From a virus, in IMG/VR virus record IMGVR_UViG_3300020601_000959, positions 5,188 to 69,187 of that record: a stretch of DNA of 64,000 nucleotides; one strand, given 5' to 3'. Positions 8,256 through 48,245 of this stretch are shown here, piece after piece (positions within the stretch are counted from its first letter, which is position 1; the number at the start of each line of letters is the position of its first letter). The notes below the pieces were generated by a model. That model did no database searches. It had not been told where the DNA came from and worked only from the letters and a program-made list of their open reading frames with translations. A program made the position numbers and the translations under genes.

Positions 8256-8262
8256 TTAAAGG

Positions 8263-8293
8263 TTGACAACCTTTAAATTTTATGTTATAAATA
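8263..8293 (+). promoter_or_regulatory. Composite early/late promoter for tmRNA
   Basis: TTGACA 8263-8268, 17 nt, TATAAATA 8286-8293. Confidence 0.7.
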
Positions 8294-8294
8294 A

Positions 8295-8515
8295 CCTGTA
8301 GGCGTTATAAAGCGTATTTGGACTCCGGGGCGGTACCGGACGCCTCCACCATAAACACATTTACTGAGTGTGTTTTTGATGGGGGCGACATAGGATTCGA
8401 CAGGTAGGCTAGTTTACAAAACACAAATGCAAACGATAACTTTGCACCATCTGGATTTGCCTTAGCGGCCTAATCACAGGGGGTATGGGTTCCACCTAGC
8501 AACAGAACGGGCCTG
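8295..8515 (+). ncRNA. ssrA: Permuted (two-piece) tmRNA, tag ANDNFAPSGFALAA
   Basis: Acceptor piece ending CGCCTCCACCA (8351), intervening hairpin AAACACAT/GTGTGTTT, coding piece starting GGGGGCGACATAGGATTCGAC (~8381), tag reading frame 8429-8473; outer ends approximate. Confidence 0.93.
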
Positions 8516-8541
8516 TTTTCCAACTAACAAGGGAGAAATAT

Positions 8542-30561: not shown

Positions 30562-30933
30562 ATGTTGAAGTGGATACTTGAAAGACTGCTTAAAGATTAT
30601 GTAGATGAGTTAGTAGATAAACGTTTCAAAGAGAAAATGTATGAAAGGTATTATGAAACCAAACAACAAGAACTCAGAGAAAGAATCCAACGACTACGTC
30701 GAAGTATTTCATCACCAACACAAAGGGTTCAAACTGAGACAAAAAGAGAGGAAAAGCCCAGTAGTGTATTGGAGGTACCCAGATCTGAAGAACCCAGAGT
30801 ACGGAAGAAGAATAATAAGAAGGTAGACAACAGAGACTGGTTTGAAGATACTATGAAAGAAGTAGAAAAAGCAAGAGCAAAACGTGAAGAAATGGATAAA
30901 CTAAAAGCCAAACTCACAGGGAAAACAAGATGA
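30562..30933 (+). CDS. Hypothetical charged protein
   Basis: ORF after ATAAATA, overlapping cyclase start. Confidence 0.55.
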   Translation: MLKWILERLLKDYVDELVDKRFKEKMYERYYETKQQELRERIQRLRRSISSPTQRVQTETKREEKPSSVLEVPRSEEPRVRKKNNKKVDNRDWFEDTMKEVEKARAKREEMDKLKAKLTGKTR

Positions 30934-32975
30934 GAAAAATTATATTTTCACCATTATGGAGCCTATTAGTATTAGCAGTACTAAGTTATCTATTCTATTT
31001 AAACCCGCCGTTTTTAGAAAGTGTTAAATTACGGTACTTTGACTCGCTGATTGTGAATCAACAGCCAGTTGAAAACAACATCTATACAGTGAATATTGAT
31101 GAGCCAAGTTTAGAGGCATACGGACAATGGCCGTGGCCGAGAGGTGATTATGGTAGCCTTATAGAGGAGATATATGCCAGAGGCGCTGGACTAGTAGTGT
31201 TCAATGTATTGATGTCTGAAACAGATCGTCAGGGCGAGGACGTTATGCTTGCCCTGACTATGAGCAATTATCCAGTTATTGTCACAATGCTGGGCTCCGA
31301 AGAAAATAAAAATGAACCAATCAATCCTGGTGCTACTATAGTAAACAGTGATTACATTTATACTATCCCAAGCGTTCCAGGAATCATAGCAAATGTTCCT
31401 GATATCGAAAATAACGCCATTGGGTCAGGCATTACAAACTCTTGGCCTGAAATAGATGGTGTAACAAGACGCATACCATTAGTAGTAGAATCTGGCGGTA
31501 CATTGTATCCAAATGTTACAATGGAGGTATTGCGTGTACTAGCAGGTGATCCAAGTTTCCAAATCAAACTATCACCGATGGGTGTAGACAAACTACGCAT
31601 ACCACAATTTGGTGTTATACAGACTAGCCCAACAGGTGAAGTATGGATTGACTGGAGTCAACAATCAAAGTCATATAGCGCAGTAGACTTACCAGATGAC
31701 TTTGCTGGCGGCATAGTATTTGTAGGACCAACAGCAGCAGGGCTTACACAGCCATTAGCAACAGCAGCAGGTTCAGTGTTCCCACACGAAGTCCAAGCAG
31801 CAATGCTAGGAACAGTTTTTAATGAATCAAACATAAGCAGACATCCTGACGCAGAAGCATGGGCTGAACTAGCAGCGTTAATAACGGCAGGCGTATTTTT
31901 AATTGCACTCGCCCGATGGACATATGTTGGTATAGCCTTCTTTGTATTGTCAGTAGGCGGTTTTATTGGAGTTAGTATATATGTATTCAATACACAAAAT
32001 ATTCTTATTGATGGCGCTACTATCAGTGCTTTCCTCTTGCTCGTGGGTCTCAAACGATATGTGCTCAAGTTCCTCGACGAGTTCCTGCAAAAGCAAGCCA
32101 TTAAAAAACAATTCGAAGGATACGCCAGCCCAGCAGTGGTTAAACTATTACAAGAATCTCCAGAGCTTGTTAAACGTGGTATAAAGAAAGATGTGAGTAT
32201 CGTGTTCAGTGACTTGCGTGGATTTACACCATTAGGTGAATCATTTGGAGACGATGTACAAGGGCTAACAAGAATAATGAATGGCTACATGGATGCCATT
32301 ACAGAGCCAGTGCTTGACGCAGATGGCATGATTATAAAGTATATTGGTGACGCTAGTATGCACATACACAACGCACCAATTGACGACAACAGACACGCAC
32401 ACACCGCAGTAGAAACAGGACTTAAAATGTTGAAAGCAGTGGAGAAGTTTAATGAAGAAGTTATTATACCCGAAGGTAGGCCACCTGTCGGTATGGGTGC
32501 CGGCATTAATACTGGGCTTGGTTATCTGGGCGAAATGGGCAGCAGCAAACGACACAGTTATGATGTACTCGGAGACGCCGTCAGTACAGCAGCTCGTGTT
32601 GAAAGCAAATGTAAAGAATACGGATGTCTATTACTTGTTGGAGAAAATACATACGAAGCAACAAAGGAAGACTTCTTCTATCTCAAAGTAGACGATTTAC
32701 AAGTAAAAGGCAAAAGTGTAGGATTAAGCATTTATACTGTATTAGATAATCCACAACATGCCTGGAAAAAAGATCAATACAGACACGAAAAAATGATGGA
32801 AGCATATAAAGCACAAGACTTTGATGAAGCTTATAGAATAAGTGCTGCATTGACAAATTGTTTTGATTTCAAAATGACAGGCTATTATAAAATGTGGATG
32901 GAACGTTGTGAATATATGAAAACACAAGACTTACCATCAGATTGGAATGGTGTATTTGTAGCCACAAGTAAATAG
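30930..32975 (+). CDS. CHASE2-domain class III adenylate/guanylate cyclase
   Basis: IDEPSL, GQWPWPR, DGVTRRIPL; TM helices; FSDLRGFT, KYIGDA, GINTG, YDVLGDAVSTAARVE. Confidence 0.93.
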   Translation: MRKIIFSPLWSLLVLAVLSYLFYLNPPFLESVKLRYFDSLIVNQQPVENNIYTVNIDEPSLEAYGQWPWPRGDYGSLIEEIYARGAGLVVFNVLMSETDRQGEDVMLALTMSNYPVIVTMLGSEENKNEPINPGATIVNSDYIYTIPSVPGIIANVPDIENNAIGSGITNSWPEIDGVTRRIPLVVESGGTLYPNVTMEVLRVLAGDPSFQIKLSPMGVDKLRIPQFGVIQTSPTGEVWIDWSQQSKSYSAVDLPDDFAGGIVFVGPTAAGLTQPLATAAGSVFPHEVQAAMLGTVFNESNISRHPDAEAWAELAALITAGVFLIALARWTYVGIAFFVLSVGGFIGVSIYVFNTQNILIDGATISAFLLLVGLKRYVLKFLDEFLQKQAIKKQFEGYASPAVVKLLQESPELVKRGIKKDVSIVFSDLRGFTPLGESFGDDVQGLTRIMNGYMDAITEPVLDADGMIIKYIGDASMHIHNAPIDDNRHAHTAVETGLKMLKAVEKFNEEVIIPEGRPPVGMGAGINTGLGYLGEMGSSKRHSYDVLGDAVSTAARVESKCKEYGCLLLVGENTYEATKEDFFYLKVDDLQVKGKSVGLSIYTVLDNPQHAWKKDQYRHEKMMEAYKAQDFDEAYRISAALTNCFDFKMTGYYKMWMERCEYMKTQDLPSDWNGVFVATSK

Positions 32976-42188: not shown

Positions 42189-42406
42189 GTGGATACAAAA
42201 TTGATGAGGTAATAGGTTTACTATACCAAATCAATCTGCGTCTAAAGCGTATCGAAGACCATATGGAACTTGACGAGCAGGAACTAGAAGACATTCTTAA
42301 ACAATTAGATGAAGAATTATCTACACCTCCTGCTCAAACCAAACCTAAGTTGACTGTGGTCAAAGATGAACCTGATGATAACGTGTTTGAGTTTATACCT
42401 CGGTGA
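42185..42406 (+). CDS. Hypothetical protein
   Basis: ATGA coupling; KLTVVK..NVFEF tail; stop lies inside tRNA-Ser. Confidence 0.55.
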   Translation: MSGYKIDEVIGLLYQINLRLKRIEDHMELDEQELEDILKQLDEELSTPPAQTKPKLTVVKDEPDDNVFEFIPR

Positions 42407-42491
42407 CGTGGCTGAGTGGTCGAAAGCACCTCCCTGCTAAGGAGGCGTACCTTAACGGGTACCCAGGGTTCGAATCCCTGCGTCACCGCCA
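42402..42491 (+). tRNA. tRNA-Ser(GCT)
   Basis: GGTGACG/CGTCACC acceptor, CCTCC-CTGCTAA-GGAGG, long variable arm, TTCGAAT, G-CCA. Confidence 0.96.
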
Positions 42492-42508
42492 GTATAAATA
42501 CTCGTGTT

Positions 42509-42584
42509 GCCCCTATAGCTCAGCTGGTAGAGCAACTGATTTGTAATCAGTAGGTCCGCGGTTCGAGTCCGTGTGGGGGCACCA
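42509..42584 (+). tRNA. tRNA-Thr(TGT)
   Basis: GCCCCTA/TGGGGGC, ACTGA-TTTGTAA-TCAGT, TTCGAGT, CCA; TATAAATA at 42493-42500. Confidence 0.96.
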
Positions 42585-45481: not shown

Positions 45482-46115
45482 AATTGTATCTTCGGGTAGA
45501 GTAAGATTACATGTATTTGATCATGACAATGTTGAATTTGAAAAAGTAAGACAACAGTGCCTACAAGAAGATAATTGGCTACGTGAAAATTACACAAAAG
45601 ATCGTTGTGTAATTGAAGATCACAAATTGTTTTGGATCGCTTACTTAGACGACAAACTTTGGCATTTCAGCGGTTTGCTTGAATTATCTCCACATGTAGC
45701 TAGAATACTCAACAGAACTTATATGTTTCCTGAATGGCGTAGTCCAAGACAAATTACATATCATCATGATCAACTAGCTAACCATGTAATTCCATTGGTA
45801 GAACAAGTGTTAGGCTTTGAATATGATTTACTGTTTTTCAGTATGCAAAGACGCAAGCGTGGATATCAAATTGAAAAACAACCTTGGTGGGAAAATGTTA
45901 AACGTAGTTGGATGAGCGTCACAGACAAATGGCAATCGTTTGATGATGGGCTAGTTAGAATATATCCAGACGAACAAGAAAGTTGTTATCAAAATGTGAT
46001 TTATAAAAGCAATGGATATACATTAAAGGACTGGGGTCCGCGAATTATTACATATAATGAATATATAGAAAAATTTTACAAAAAAGATGAAGATTTTTTT
46101 GTTTCTTGGCAATAA
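45471..46115 (+). CDS. Hypothetical protein (possible GNAT-like)
   Basis: ARILNRTYMFPEWR. Confidence 0.5.
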   Translation: MINEIVSSGRVRLHVFDHDNVEFEKVRQQCLQEDNWLRENYTKDRCVIEDHKLFWIAYLDDKLWHFSGLLELSPHVARILNRTYMFPEWRSPRQITYHHDQLANHVIPLVEQVLGFEYDLLFFSMQRRKRGYQIEKQPWWENVKRSWMSVTDKWQSFDDGLVRIYPDEQESCYQNVIYKSNGYTLKDWGPRIITYNEYIEKFYKKDEDFFVSWQ

Positions 46116-46120
46116 AATGG

Positions 46121-46149
46121 TTGACAACGGTGTAATAGTTTGCTATATT
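46121..46149 (+). promoter_or_regulatory. Sigma70 promoter for the ncRNA/tRNA region
   Basis: TTGACA-17-TATATT with extended TG. Confidence 0.75.
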
Positions 46150-46180
46150 ATAAACATAACAAAGACGACGGTCCTAGTTA

Positions 46181-46366
46181 GATAGTGCAAGGAAACGATG
46201 CTTACCCAGGCATTAACTTGACTCACACGCTGTGGTGGCGCTGTAAGACTTTGGAGACAAAGCATTGCAGAAAAAGTAGGATTAACCATTCTATTGTGAG
46301 GTTCCGTGTTGTTTTGAGCCTGATGGGGCATAACGCGGTTGTTGGTAATCAGTAGTCCAACCTATC
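46181..46366 (+). ncRNA. Highly structured ~190 nt RNA of unassigned family
   Basis: Closing GATAG/CTATC, CTCACA/TGTGAG multiloop, CTTTG-GAGA-CAAAG, CCGTGTTGT/ATAACGCGG, GTTGG/CCAAC; no credible ORF. Confidence 0.7.
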
Positions 46367-46395
46367 ACATATAAATACAACGAAGGAATTTTAAC

Positions 46396-46458
46396 ATGTT
46401 CAAGACTAACACAATATGTATAATATGTTGGCCACCAGGAGATTGGGGTATGTCTTGA
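46396..46458 (+). CDS. Attenuator leader peptide MFKTNTICIICWPPGDWGMS
   Basis: TATAAATA 46370-46377, AAGGA RBS, 20 codons incl. ATA x3, TGT x2, TGG x2, CCA x2, overlapping the antiterminator. Confidence 0.75.
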   Translation: MFKTNTICIICWPPGDWGMS

Positions 46459-46521
46459 CATGACTTTATAAAAAAGTTATTTCAACAGCCCCTAGCATTA
46501 AATTTGTTAGGGGCTTTTTTT
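46430..46521 (+). terminator. Attenuator: alternative 1:2, 2:3 (antiterminator) and 3:4 (terminator) hairpins
   Basis: Terminator AGCCCCTAGCA/TGTTAGGGGCT plus T tract (46487-46521); antiterminator GGGGT..TTGA..ATGACTTT/AAAGTTAT..TCAA..GCCCC (46445-46492). Confidence 0.8.
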
Positions 46522-46523
46522 AT

Positions 46524-46599
46524 AACTACACTACACCTTACTGCAATAAGGTGTCGTTGCAGAGACAGAGGCCTCGAAAGGGCTAAAGATAGTGTAGTT
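46524..46599 (+). ncRNA. Compact structured RNA element before tRNA-Trp
   Basis: 10-bp closing stem AACTACACTA/TAGTGTAGTT, CACCTTA/TAAGGTG hairpin whose loop CTGCAA complements TTGCAG, and a GAAA-loop hairpin. Confidence 0.6.
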
Positions 46600-46616
46600 T
46601 TAAAAAAAGTTTTTAA

Positions 46617-46701
46617 GCAGGTGCGCTACAGTCGGAGAGGTAGGCTGGTCTCCAAAACCAGTGCGTTAGCTGAGCGAGTTCGAATCTCGCCACCTGTGCC
46701 A
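46617..46701 (+). tRNA. tRNA-Trp(CCA) with enlarged variable arm
   Basis: GCAGGTG/CACCTGT, CTGGT-CTCCAAA-ACCAG, GCGAG-TTCGAAT-CTCGC, G-CCA. Confidence 0.88.
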
Positions 46702-46703
46702 AT

Positions 46704-46781
46704 CGGGGCTTGGGAAAGTCTGGTCAATCCGCCTGTTTTGGGAACAGGAAATCGCTGGTTCGAATCCAGCAGCCCCGACCA
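46704..46781 (+). tRNA. tRNA-Pro(TGG)
   Basis: CGGGGCT/AGCCCCG, CCTGT-TTTGGGA-ACAGG, TTCGAAT, A-CCA. Confidence 0.93.
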
Positions 46782-46787
46782 AATAAT

Positions 46788-46862
46788 GCGCTTGTAGTTC
46801 AGTGGTAGAACCGTCCGCTCATAACGGATCAGTCGGGAGTTCGAATCTCTCCGGGCGCACCA
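46788..46862 (+). tRNA. tRNA-CAT, probably Ile2 (lysidine, reads AUA)
   Basis: GCGCTTG/CGGGCGC, GTCCG-CTCATAA-CGGAT; no C1:A72 mismatch or GGG/CCC of initiator; body resembles alphaproteobacterial Ile2. Confidence 0.8.
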
Positions 46863-46884
46863 TATTTCCTTAATAAATATTGGC

Positions 46885-47037
46885 ATGTTCAAAGCAACCA
46901 AAGAAACTATTTGGCATCTCACATGTATAAAATGTAAAAACTGGTTCACATATGCTACAATGGAAAAAATGTGTATAGACAGGTACACGTTTCATTGTCC
47001 ACATTGTGGATCAAAGGGTAAAGTTACTCCGGAGTGA
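46885..47037 (+). CDS. Zinc-ribbon protein (50 aa, absent from ORF track)
   Basis: CIKC...CPHCG; ATAAATA upstream. Confidence 0.65.
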   Translation: MFKATKETIWHLTCIKCKNWFTYATMEKMCIDRYTFHCPHCGSKGKVTPE

Positions 47038-47039
47038 TA

Positions 47040-48245
47040 ATGTCAAAATGTATTGTACCATGGACGCAAATTGAAATTTGCGCTACAGGATTCTGCCGCC
47101 CGTGTGCTGAATATGGAACTGATTTAAAATGGGATGACGGTAAACGAATAGATTTTAATGATAAAAATACAACTTTAGATAAAGTTCTTAAATCAAACGA
47201 CTATAAAACTTTACGTGATCAATTTAGAAATAATGAAAAACCAGAGGGCTGTAGAAAGTGCTGGAAACTTGAAGAACAAGGATTGAAAAGTAGAAGACAG
47301 CGAGAACTAGAAGCGCATGAACAACATCTTGATTTAATCTCTACAGATGAAACAAAAATAGTTTTGTTTGACATAAAGCTAGGTAACCATTGTAATTTAA
47401 AATGTAATATTTGTAACAGCGAATACAGCAAGAAATGGGAAAAAGATGAAATGGATTGGTATGGACAAGTCATCAATCCAAGTTACGGAAAAGACTGGTT
47501 AAGCAATCCACAGCATTGGCAGGATATAAAGAAACAATGTGACAGTTTAGAAGTTTTATATCTTAGCGGCGGCGAACCCTTTCTTACTAAACATAATGAC
47601 GAACTTCTTACACACCTAATTGATATAGGTAGAGCGAAGGATGTTTGGATCAAATATCATACCAACGGAACCTATAAACTTACTGAAAAACTTATAAATC
47701 AATTTAAGCAATTCAAACGTATACAATTGATGTACAGCATTGATGATATAGGTAGGCGTTATGAATATCAAAGACCTCCGGCTAAATGGCATCGGGTAGA
47801 ATCAAATTTTATACATGCGTTAGAACATGGTTTTATTGATACAAAAATTTGTTATACAGTGAGTTTGTTTAATAGTCTTAGCGGACAAGAGATGGAAACG
47901 TGGTGTGCTAGTGTTGGTTTTAATTTAGATAACCTAGAAGTAAATTTTGCTAGAGATCCTATACACTATGATTTAAGTATGCTCGGCGACGAACAAAAAA
48001 CTATGTTACTAAACAAACTAGGACATGGTAAAATTGATACTGAAGTATCAAAATACATTAAAAGTTCACATCAACCCACATTTGATGAGACTGGATGGCC
48101 AGTAAAATCAAAAAAAGAACTTGACAACTTGCGTAAGTATGTTATAAGTAAGGTAGACAGTAAGAGCAACATGTCTCTTATGGATGTCAGTCCTGAAATA
48201 GAAAAAGTGGTAAATTATGATGAAAACTTGTGTATTACAACGTAA
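47040..48245 (+). CDS. Radical SAM/SPASM-twitch protein
   Basis: CIVPW, CRKCW, CNLKCNIC, SGGEPF, HTNG. Confidence 0.88.
   Translation: MSKCIVPWTQIEICATGFCRPCAEYGTDLKWDDGKRIDFNDKNTTLDKVLKSNDYKTLRDQFRNNEKPEGCRKCWKLEEQGLKSRRQRELEAHEQHLDLISTDETKIVLFDIKLGNHCNLKCNICNSEYSKKWEKDEMDWYGQVINPSYGKDWLSNPQHWQDIKKQCDSLEVLYLSGGEPFLTKHNDELLTHLIDIGRAKDVWIKYHTNGTYKLTEKLINQFKQFKRIQLMYSIDDIGRRYEYQRPPAKWHRVESNFIHALEHGFIDTKICYTVSLFNSLSGQEMETWCASVGFNLDNLEVNFARDPIHYDLSMLGDEQKTMLLNKLGHGKIDTEVSKYIKSSHQPTFDETGWPVKSKKELDNLRKYVISKVDSKSNMSLMDVSPEIEKVVNYDENLCITT

Follow-up and report, generated by a model that had tools for sequence, protein, structure and literature searches.

The window examined here, the whole 64-kb stretch of DNA that was analysed, was taken from a 69-kb viral contig (IMG/VR record IMGVR_UViG_3300020601_000959) of an uncultured marine phage, the completeness of which was estimated by CheckV at about 24%. 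On its + strand a 20-codon open reading frame (ORF) with a ribosome-binding site (RBS) precedes an intrinsic terminator and three tRNA genes, which arrangement we consider likely to be a ribosome-mediated transcription attenuator of the leader-peptide, trp type whose output is a phage operon for tRNA-Trp, tRNA-Pro, and a tRNA with the anticodon CAU. On this reading, the phage probably makes those three tRNAs only when the ribosomes read the corresponding codons slowly. An initial annotation of the window had proposed such a ribosome-sensing attenuator, and the proposal is supported by the conservation of the ORF and its RBS, by three alternative RNA structures, by the position of a tRNA-Trp gene first behind the leader (29/29), and by the co-variation of the leader codons with the tRNA genes. 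The locus displays the elements of the class, namely a short ORF with an RBS, control codons cognate to the downstream tRNAs, an intrinsic terminator before the presumably regulated genes, and an antiterminator exclusive with that terminator. The parts of the putative switch are the following:

46383–46387, + strand: Shine–Dalgarno (SD) site AAGGA, 8 nt 5' of the ATG
46396–46458, + strand: leader ORF, 20 codons plus TGA, MFKTNTICIICWPPGDWGMS; frame kept in relatives
46420–46437, + strand: control window ATA ATA TGT TGG CCA CCA; TGG at 46429–46431 is the invariant codon, and CCACCA doubles as strand 1b
46395–46462, + strand: 1:2 structure (anti-antiterminator), a three-way junction, −22.3 kcal/mol; RNAalifold consensus of 27 variants
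46445–46492, + strand: 2:3 antiterminator, 19 pairs, −17.8 kcal/mol; the last ORF codons, GGGGUAUGUCUUGA, plus an inner hairpin pair with the terminator 5' arm
46487–46522, + strand: 3:4 intrinsic terminator plus T tract; stem 46487–46515 of 11 pairs (6 G–C), 7-nt loop, 7 T; −18.7 kcal/mol
46617–46701, + strand: tRNA-Trp(CCA), 41.8 bits (Rfam tRNA), 85 nt with an unusually long variable region; presumed first regulated gene
46704–46781, + strand: tRNA-Pro(UGG), 63.1 bits (Rfam tRNA)
46788–46862, + strand: tRNA with anticodon CAU, 62.6 bits (Rfam tRNA)

The leader ORF and its alternative RNA structures

Both the RBS and the 20-codon leader, with the core ATA TGT ATA ATA TGT TGG CCA CCA GGA (46414–46440), are present where the initial annotation had placed them. 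The set of related leaders consisted of 11 metagenome loci retrieved with a 3' pattern and 33 viral contigs retrieved with a 5' pattern, which together with the window make up 45 loci (those cited individually carry L numbers), 30 of them distinct. An in-frame ORF of 18–20 codons occurred in 30 of the 30 distinct variants, with an SD-like site 5–16 nt 5' of the ATG in 29. Among the 27 variants that were aligned, the leader frame contained 0 stops versus 23 and 29 in the other two frames; and the two indel sites within the ORF were both of 3 nt, the indels outside being of 1–3 nt. The entropies at the three codon positions were equal (0.41, 0.49, 0.44), the C-terminus of the peptide varied (S/F, M/T/L), and a C-to-T change behind the S/F alternative (4/27) preserved an RNA pair as G–U. 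A frame that is kept while all codon positions vary equally indicates that the peptide is not under protein-like selection, as would be the case for a leader peptide. The arrangement is shared by the close relatives L002, L003, and L121 (95% identity in the upstream gene), and 7 bases distinguish their leader from that of the window, every one of them amino-acid-changing. The codon pair TGG CCA stood at the same place in 10 of the 10 leaders retrieved with the 3' pattern—which pattern excludes that pair—and was preceded by TGT in 9 of those 10; the resulting UGGCCA is invariant and self-complementary. A broader ORF scan of the loci added the leader variants L219, L225, L231, L236, L253, L275, L302, and L308.

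Folding of the ribosome-free RNA (46372–46525) gave the 1:2 junction together with the terminator at a minimum free energy (MFE) of −45.4 kcal/mol (z = −5.98), and none of 200 shuffled sequences was as stable. The junction comprises an outer stem that holds the AUG and the UGA, hairpin A (46412–46430), and hairpin B (46431–46449), the third arm being the GCC.ACCA/UUGGGGU hairpin of the initial annotation. With a ribosome footprint kept unpaired over the ATA, TGT, or TGG codons and the RNA truncated at 46503, the MFE structure became the 2:3 hairpin, in which the GGGG of the ORF pairs with the CCCC of the terminator 5' arm. The −17.8 kcal/mol of that hairpin compares with a mean of −8.0 ± 2.5 kcal/mol for dinucleotide-shuffled upstream strands, of which 1 in 2000 reached the native value. 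With the ribosome placed on the stop codon, in turn, the folding lost the 2:3 hairpin and retained the terminator; so that the antiterminator is exclusive with the terminator and is blocked by a ribosome at the stop codon but not by one at the control codons. The computed folds thus reproduce, at the places claimed, the three mutually exclusive hairpins 1:2, 2:3, and 3:4 that the initial annotation had read from the sequence.

The same alternatives recur in the relatives. The RNAalifold consensus of the 27 aligned variants is the 1:2 junction plus the terminator, and the 2:3 hairpin is the MFE structure, with GGGG:CCCC paired, in 27 of 27 (−16.8 to −23.2 kcal/mol; terminators, −14.1 to −18.9 kcal/mol). 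The terminator is conserved among the variants, with two-sided changes at two stem positions. The core of the 2:3 helix is invariant in this set, and covariation was drawn from divergent leaders found via their tRNA-Trp genes (L218, L222, L241, L256, L265, L294, L259), whose 5' strand occupies positions about −17 to −5 relative to the stop codon; there, in L256, L265, and L259, GGGG:CCCC is replaced in a compensatory manner by GAGGGC:GCCCUC or GGAGGG:CCCUCC. In one variant, L275, which misfits the simple geometry, a TAG immediately ahead of strand 2 limits the leader to 15 codons.

In each of the 27 aligned variants the TGG stands either 13 or 16 nt from the GGGG of strand 2. From the known size of the ribosome footprint, a ribosome with the UGG in its A site would reach about 12 nt past the first base of that codon, so covering CCACCA and leaving GGGG free, whereas a stall one or two codons farther on would cover GGGG. 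This footprint geometry makes the UGG and the codons just before it the last stall positions that would open the gate. The initial annotation had also pointed to Pro-Pro-Gly as a stall motif dependent on the elongation factor EF-P, which suggestion is not supported: P-P-G occurs in 1 of 39 leaders—that of this window—and a Pro-Pro pause would be expected to cover strand 2 and to favour termination.

We therefore envisage the following sequence of events. Transcription would start at a sigma70-type promoter and proceed through a manA RNA, and/or start at the motif TATAAATA (see below for these elements), after which a ribosome would load on the 20-codon leader. A ribosome waiting with UGU or UGG—or also with the AUA just before—in the A site would cover strand 1 (CCACCA) and free the strand GGGG-UAUGUCUUGA, which strand would then pair with the 5' arm of the terminator (2:3), so that no terminator would form and the RNA polymerase would enter the tRNA genes. 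If decoding were fast, the ribosome at the UGA would cover strand 2 and the terminator (3:4) would form; if no ribosome were loaded, the 1:2 junction would form, and again the terminator with it. The very tRNAs that decode the control codons would in this way have their supply placed under negative feedback.

Linkage to tRNA-Trp and co-variation of codons with tRNA genes

The tRNA-Trp(CCA), the tRNA-Pro(UGG), and the CAU tRNA that the initial annotation had recognized behind the leader were all found by tRNA calling at 46617–46862. In the relatives, tRNA-Trp(CCA) was the first downstream tRNA gene in each of the 29 distinct variants (29/29) whose sequence continued downstream for at least 208 nt. 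The tRNA that came next was Cys(GCA) in 14 of them, Pro(UGG) in 5, CAU in 4, and Ile(UAU) in 2. The tRNA-Trp gene starts 1–3 nt after the T tract in 21 of the 29, which spacing leaves no room for a separate promoter. The promoter scan of the window likewise found none between the terminator and tRNA-Trp, so that an independent tRNA promoter after 46521, which the initial annotation had named as evidence that would speak against attenuation, is not visible. Two size classes can be told apart among the 19 distinct tRNA-Trp sequences, one ordinary of 74–75 nt, the other of 85–88 nt with a long variable region. The latter, an unusual build of tRNA-Trp(CCA) with discriminator G, was seen in the window (46617–46701) and in L175, L177, L165, and L191. 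An uncertain pair of loci that suit the switch geometry poorly, L206 and L252, have a 31-codon ORF (..YSWCF..), the tRNA order Cys then Trp, and Trp-Cys codons 51 nt from strand 2.

Co-variation was assessed on 39 distinct combinations of a leader with its downstream tRNA set. For 49 of the 57 non-Trp tRNAs a cognate codon lay within the positions W−4 to W+3, whereas shuffled sets averaged 34.8 and did not exceed 44 (0/10000 reached 49); when the whole ORF was counted the figure was 52 of 57, which 1 of 10000 shuffles reached. The match between leader codons and downstream tRNAs that the initial annotation had noticed in the window thus extends to the related leaders as co-variation. Broken down by tRNA type, the signal comes mainly from ATA: of the leaders with ATA in the control window, 9 had a tRNA-Ile(UAU) or CAU tRNA and 4 had neither, whereas among those without ATA the numbers were 0 and 26 (Fisher p = 3.4e-6). 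Associations were also found for Ser(UGA) (p = 0.008), Gln(UUG) (p = 0.038), and Cys(GCA) (p = 0.022), and those for Pro, Tyr, Arg, and Gly were not significant in the 39 combinations. Individual loci illustrate the pattern: ..SYIWCPTY.. accompanies Trp, Tyr, Pro, Cys, and Ile(UAU) in L294; ..NFRWCPPR.., Trp, Pro, Cys, and Arg(ACG) in L218; and ..ITYWPL.., Trp and Tyr, without Cys, in L253. Moreover, the tRNA-Trp is identical at L168, L171, L197, and L198, yet the leaders differ and the other tRNAs differ concordantly: ICIICW with CAU in L171, TQLCW with Gln and Cys in L168, and ITCW with Cys in L197 and L198.

The same counts bear on the identity of the CAU tRNA, which ARAGORN labels Met by default. 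All such tRNAs follow leaders whose control window contains ATA (5/5), and the same is true of tRNA-Ile(UAU) (4/4). The CAU tRNA is therefore probably of the AUA-reading tRNA-Ile2 type rather than a Met tRNA, and its behaviour, being that of tRNA-Ile(UAU), lends indirect support to the Ile2 assignment guessed at in the initial annotation.

The concordance between codons and tRNA genes also bears on whether the ORF might report the general speed or availability of ribosomes, that is, a global translation stress, through the same three structures. A slowing anywhere from about codon 9 to codon 12 would give the same fold, and a study on the Anabaena trn operon describes extra tRNA genes that are inducible by general translation stress (PMC8421152). 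A general sensor, however, needs neither a TGG that is invariant and at a fixed distance from strand 2 nor neighbouring codons that change with the tRNA genes behind them, for which reasons we hold this explanation to be quite unlikely.

A different proposal would do without attenuation altogether: the mini-ORF might encode a small protein, or the terminated RNA might be a small RNA (sRNA), behind which an ordinary terminator would let the tRNAs be made by constitutive leak-through, the linkage to tRNA-Trp being inherited synteny. The ORF, the SD site, and the terminator are conserved, as this view would have it; and in Sinorhizobium, according to published abstracts, the trpL leader peptide and the attenuator RNA act in trans, so that a second role would be possible even with a real attenuation. 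Yet the ORF bears no sign of amino-acid selection (the entropies are equal, the C-terminus is variable, and the S/F change preserves a G–U pair), the 2:3 hairpin persists among the relatives with compensatory changes, codons and downstream tRNAs vary together even among the loci with identical tRNA-Trp, and the tRNA gene abuts the T tract in 21 of 29 variants. An explanation of this kind is in our opinion unlikely, and we retain attenuation as the preferred reading.

A number of observations nevertheless weigh against attenuation, or against the strength of the case for it. The codons for Cys and Pro are near-universal in the leaders regardless of the tRNA (present without it in 12/16 for Cys, and for Pro in 24/29, p = 0.21), so that the matching for both is largely non-informative, CCACCA being in addition a structural strand. 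The locus L302 has a tRNA-Arg(ACG) and no CGN codon; tRNA-Gly(UCC) was matched by GGA or GGG in the control window in 0 of 2 cases; and ATA occurs without an Ile tRNA in four leaders. The leaders are related, so that the counts do not represent independent events, and eight loci with ORFs unlike the module (L217, L296, L249, L213, L215, L226, L248, L306) had been dropped before the counting. A reverse search by the tRNA-Trp pattern yielded 78 distinct upstream contexts, of which 15 contained the standard leader pattern and 63 did not; in 9 of those 63 there were leader-like ORFs (L218, L222, L241, L256, L265, L294, L259, L206, L252), the first six having W-C or C-W-C in place of C-W. The control window contains one Trp codon only, the second, at 46444, being inside strand 2, whereas classical trp leaders use tandem codons; the sensitivity may in consequence be low. 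Finally, it is from sequence that we infer the translation of the ORF, the stalling, the regulated read-through, and the physiological trigger.

Four metatranscriptome runs contain parts of the stretch, as contigs, which provide neither ends, nor strand, nor level. An exact contig (X1 record 5; 46454–46612) extends across the terminator, with 33 letters on one side and 91 on the other, which evidence is weak; in a relative, a contig of 4.2 kb (X2 record 13) spans the leader into tRNA-Trp. Since the flanking coding DNA was covered at a similar depth, a carry-over of DNA is possible; and since the uncovered parts and the contig ends near 46523–46526 coincide with strain differences, both are uninformative with respect to transcript ends.

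As a rather doubtful extension of the attenuator reading, the leader family might constitute a programmable tRNA-pool sensor, in which the few codons beside the fixed Trp are rewritten in each phage and would thereby set the tRNA genes to be turned on. The trigger would then be the loss of host tRNAs in the infection—through tRNA-cleaving defences or phage-induced decay—and not amino-acid starvation, and the manA RNA would be a second input, tied to the tRNA supply. That anticodon nucleases are the trigger is speculation.

Promoters, manA RNA, and other features of the window

The order of elements on the + strand is a sigma70-type promoter, a manA RNA, TATAAATA, AAGGA, the 20-codon ORF, the terminator, a spacer, and the three tRNA genes. 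Besides the parts of the switch given above, this block contains:

46121–46149, + strand: sigma70-type promoter (TTGACA, 17 nt, TGnTATATT), 11/12 matches, with an extended −10; putatively active
46161–46371, + strand: manA RNA motif (Rfam RF01745), 58.0 bits versus a gathering score of 55.2, model positions 1–192
46370–46377, + strand: T4-type late-promoter-like motif TATAAATA, a sequence match of putative function
46524–46601, + strand: optional structured spacer element, −27.4 kcal/mol, z = −3.1; no Rfam match

The late-promoter motif of the initial annotation, TATAAATA, is at the place indicated; it is not the sole candidate promoter, a sigma70-type promoter and a manA RNA being present upstream of it. 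These two elements, immediately 5' of the leader, are absent from that annotation. The site at 46121–46149 is a probable early start of the whole leader transcript. In the scan that returned it, promoter-like sites as a class were no commoner than in shuffles (12 versus 12.1). Of the 30 distinct leader variants, 16 have the exact TATAAATA at most 50 nt from the ATG, in most cases with an overlap onto a sigma70 −10 element; L002 carries GATAAATA. A TTGAC −35 box lies immediately 5' of the leader in 28 of the 30, and a manA RNA between promoter and leader is confined, among the 30, to this window and the L002 type. A sigma70 promoter within the 2:3 hairpin (TTGAC(A/G), ca. 17 nt, TAT(T/A)TT) was considered and is not favoured, the spacer being the length-variable loop of the hairpin, and a transcript from there would still include the terminator.

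The manA RNA is a full-length match above the gathering score of the family. Two of its loops changed on both sides between the window (46235–46240/46285–46291) and L002 (3762–3767/3811–3817), namely from GUGGUG/UAACCA to GUAGUG/UAACUA, which change would fit a loop–loop pairing as annotated "pseudoknot?" in the published figure legend. Of 122 manA pattern matches, 13 had a tRNA gene within 600 nt. Nine other viral loci of the common manA subclass (L006, L011, L019, L024, L029, L056, L073, L074, L101) have a tRNA gene—for Asn, Gly, or Tyr—8–50 nt after manA.

This proximity is relevant to the idea of an RNA-only switch without translation, which would act either by a T-box-like binding of tRNA—UGGC pairing with the GCCA 3' end of tRNA-Trp—or by manA as the sensor, the hairpins behind it serving as expression platform. 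The invariant, self-complementary UGGCCA would suit the first version, and the manA directly upstream here, together with the short distance from manA to tRNA genes in those nine loci, would suit the second. The conservation of the SD site, of the ATG, of in-frame indels, and of a stop-free frame speaks for translation instead; 28 of the 30 leader variants have no manA; and neither the T-box nor any other Rfam family reaches threshold on the leader. We regard an RNA-only switch as very unlikely.

The subclass of manA that ends in CCTATCAC has an intrinsic terminator at most about 15 nt after the RNA in 15 of 20 distinct contexts (L007, L016, L032, L033, L037, L041, L060, L066, L067, L082, L084, L092, L108, L118, L122), beyond which there follow the motif GATAAATAC, a structured 5' untranslated region, and a gene starting MGRP.... 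In this subclass manA looks like a self-contained terminated RNA. The ORF of the window might be a chance one before a plain terminator of the manA transcript, perhaps left over from the 5' end of the 46885–47037 gene: these terminators occur in contexts of the same manA subclass, that of L041 resembling the one in the window, and short repeats are shared between the beginnings of the leader and of the 46885 ORF (17 nt at 82%, 13 nt at 92%). The unit of ORF, hairpins, and terminator occurs nonetheless with its own promoter in the 28 of 30 variants without manA, which makes a chance ORF extremely improbable; on that evidence the plain manA terminator was rejected, and the remnant of the 46885–47037 gene was dropped, the same leader having its own promoter in many loci. 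The fusion of manA with the putative attenuator in one leader is specific to the window and its close relatives. The orphan manA RNA is thereby placed in front of tRNA genes, a new setting that may offer clues to what it senses.

The spacer element between terminator and tRNA-Trp occurred in 11 distinct contexts in two sequence forms, and is absent from the 21 of 29 variants whose tRNA abuts the T tract. Of about 80–95 nt and highly conserved, the element was also seen in L121, L165, L181, L197, L198, L206, L219, L252, L253, and L308; both forms have a long closing stem followed by AAAAAAGTT(T)AT, which motif is also found in the inner hairpin of the leader.

When the relatives of the upstream 214-aa gene were compared, the block at 46116–46884 (manA, leader, and tRNAs) stood out as an island: in ten distant relatives of that gene (L123–L132; 36–71% identity, ten inspected of 41 loci) a coding sequence follows directly, and no tRNA, manA, or leader was present behind the homologues. 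A search of phage records with 46100–47100 returned 11 records that matched in tRNA parts of unrelated phages only, none of which covers 80% of the query. The exact 28-base leader pattern had 0 matches in viral contigs; the 3' pattern of the leader had 0 in bacterial and archaeal genomes, so that no cellular counterpart was found at that stringency.

A second tRNA pair in the window, Ser(GCU) and Thr(UGU) at 42402–42584, lies directly behind a 73-aa ORF, without an attenuator. Behind the leader tRNAs, the start of a 50-aa zinc-ribbon-like ORF (46876–46892, 46923–46935) resembles the start of the leader (46387–46403, 46416–46428), both ORFs having an MFK start and a CxxC. The window also encodes a ribonucleotide reductase and several radical-SAM proteins, a permuted tmRNA gene of the alpha-proteobacterial type (8259–8517; 85.9 bits), and a 681-aa ORF (30930–32975) that joins a CHASE2 sensor domain to an adenylate/guanylate cyclase domain, the last two being here in a phage contig.

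Comparison with known systems

The leader-peptide attenuators form a class that comprises the trp leader (trpL) of enterobacteria along with those of his, phe, leu, thr, and ilv, and in all those described the regulated genes are, to our knowledge, genes of amino-acid biosynthesis or of synthetases. The locus of the window resembles the trpL class in having an SD site and a short ORF with one or more control codons, a translation-free 1:2 structure, an intrinsic 3:4 terminator, and a 2:3 antiterminator whose 5' strand lies beside or over the stop codon; and it resembles the thr and ilv leaders in mixing codons for several products. In contrast to the trpL class, the genes presumably regulated here are tRNAs only, without biosynthetic enzymes, so that the loop would close on the decoder; the family has a single fixed Trp codon flanked by codons of other tRNAs; and it is carried by phages, in many cases with early and late promoter motifs that overlap. 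On 46372–46535 no leader family of Rfam reached its threshold, and the best sub-threshold matches (SdsR, 30.3 versus 38; trpB, 25.4 versus 59; His_leader, 19.3 versus 49) were driven by the terminator.

In pheST, aminoacyl-tRNA synthetase genes are controlled by attenuation through a Phe-rich leader. There, as would apply here, a leader-peptide attenuator governs a component of the decoding apparatus and not a biosynthetic pathway; but the output of pheST is a protein, the synthetase, whereas that of the window would be the tRNA itself, with no coding gene downstream. The T-box recognizes uncharged tRNA by direct binding, without any translated ORF, and the genes under its control are synthetase and amino-acid genes. 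The leader shares with it a terminator/antiterminator switch that would report the state of a specific tRNA; the conservation of the ORF and of the SD site excludes T-box control, and the Rfam search returned no T-box match on the leader at E-values up to 5.

Of the published cases that could be consulted, the nearest is the tRNA operon trn (L-array) of Anabaena sp. PCC 7120, which is inducible: its supernumerary tRNA genes are silent until translation is impaired and are controlled at the promoter by direct repeats and a repressor (PMC8421152). The terms "attenuat" and "leader peptide" have 0 occurrences in PMC8421152 and PMC10272220, both on that operon, which is cellular and promoter-controlled, unlike the phage-borne operon of the window. 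With respect to manA, the contexts named in the part of the 2010 description available to us are sugar, nucleotide, chaperone, and photosynthesis genes (Weinberg et al., 2010; PMC2864571), tRNA genes not being among them. The element of the window agrees with that description in lying within a T4-like marine phage and in a 5' leader, and departs from it in that the "gene" behind manA is a 20-codon leader which would gate tRNA genes (PMC2864571).

The initial annotation knew of no leader-peptide attenuator for a phage tRNA operon; nor did we find one described for tRNA genes in the literature searched, a body that lacked most subscription journals. The carriage of tRNA genes by phages has been debated for decades, with proposals that include compensation for codon usage, replacement of degraded host tRNAs, and an escape from tRNA-cleaving defences. 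If the attenuator reading is true, a phage would gauge the speed of decoding codon by codon and top up the limiting tRNAs only, by the simplest possible feedback on the decoder itself, and classical attenuation would extend from amino-acid operons to tRNA genes. The leader codons could then be read as a label for those tRNAs that matter to the phage, and the leader might serve as a compact, portable part for sensing tRNA availability. The mechanism is classical; what is new in comparison with the systems above is the tRNA genes as its target, the modular matching of codons, and the phage setting.

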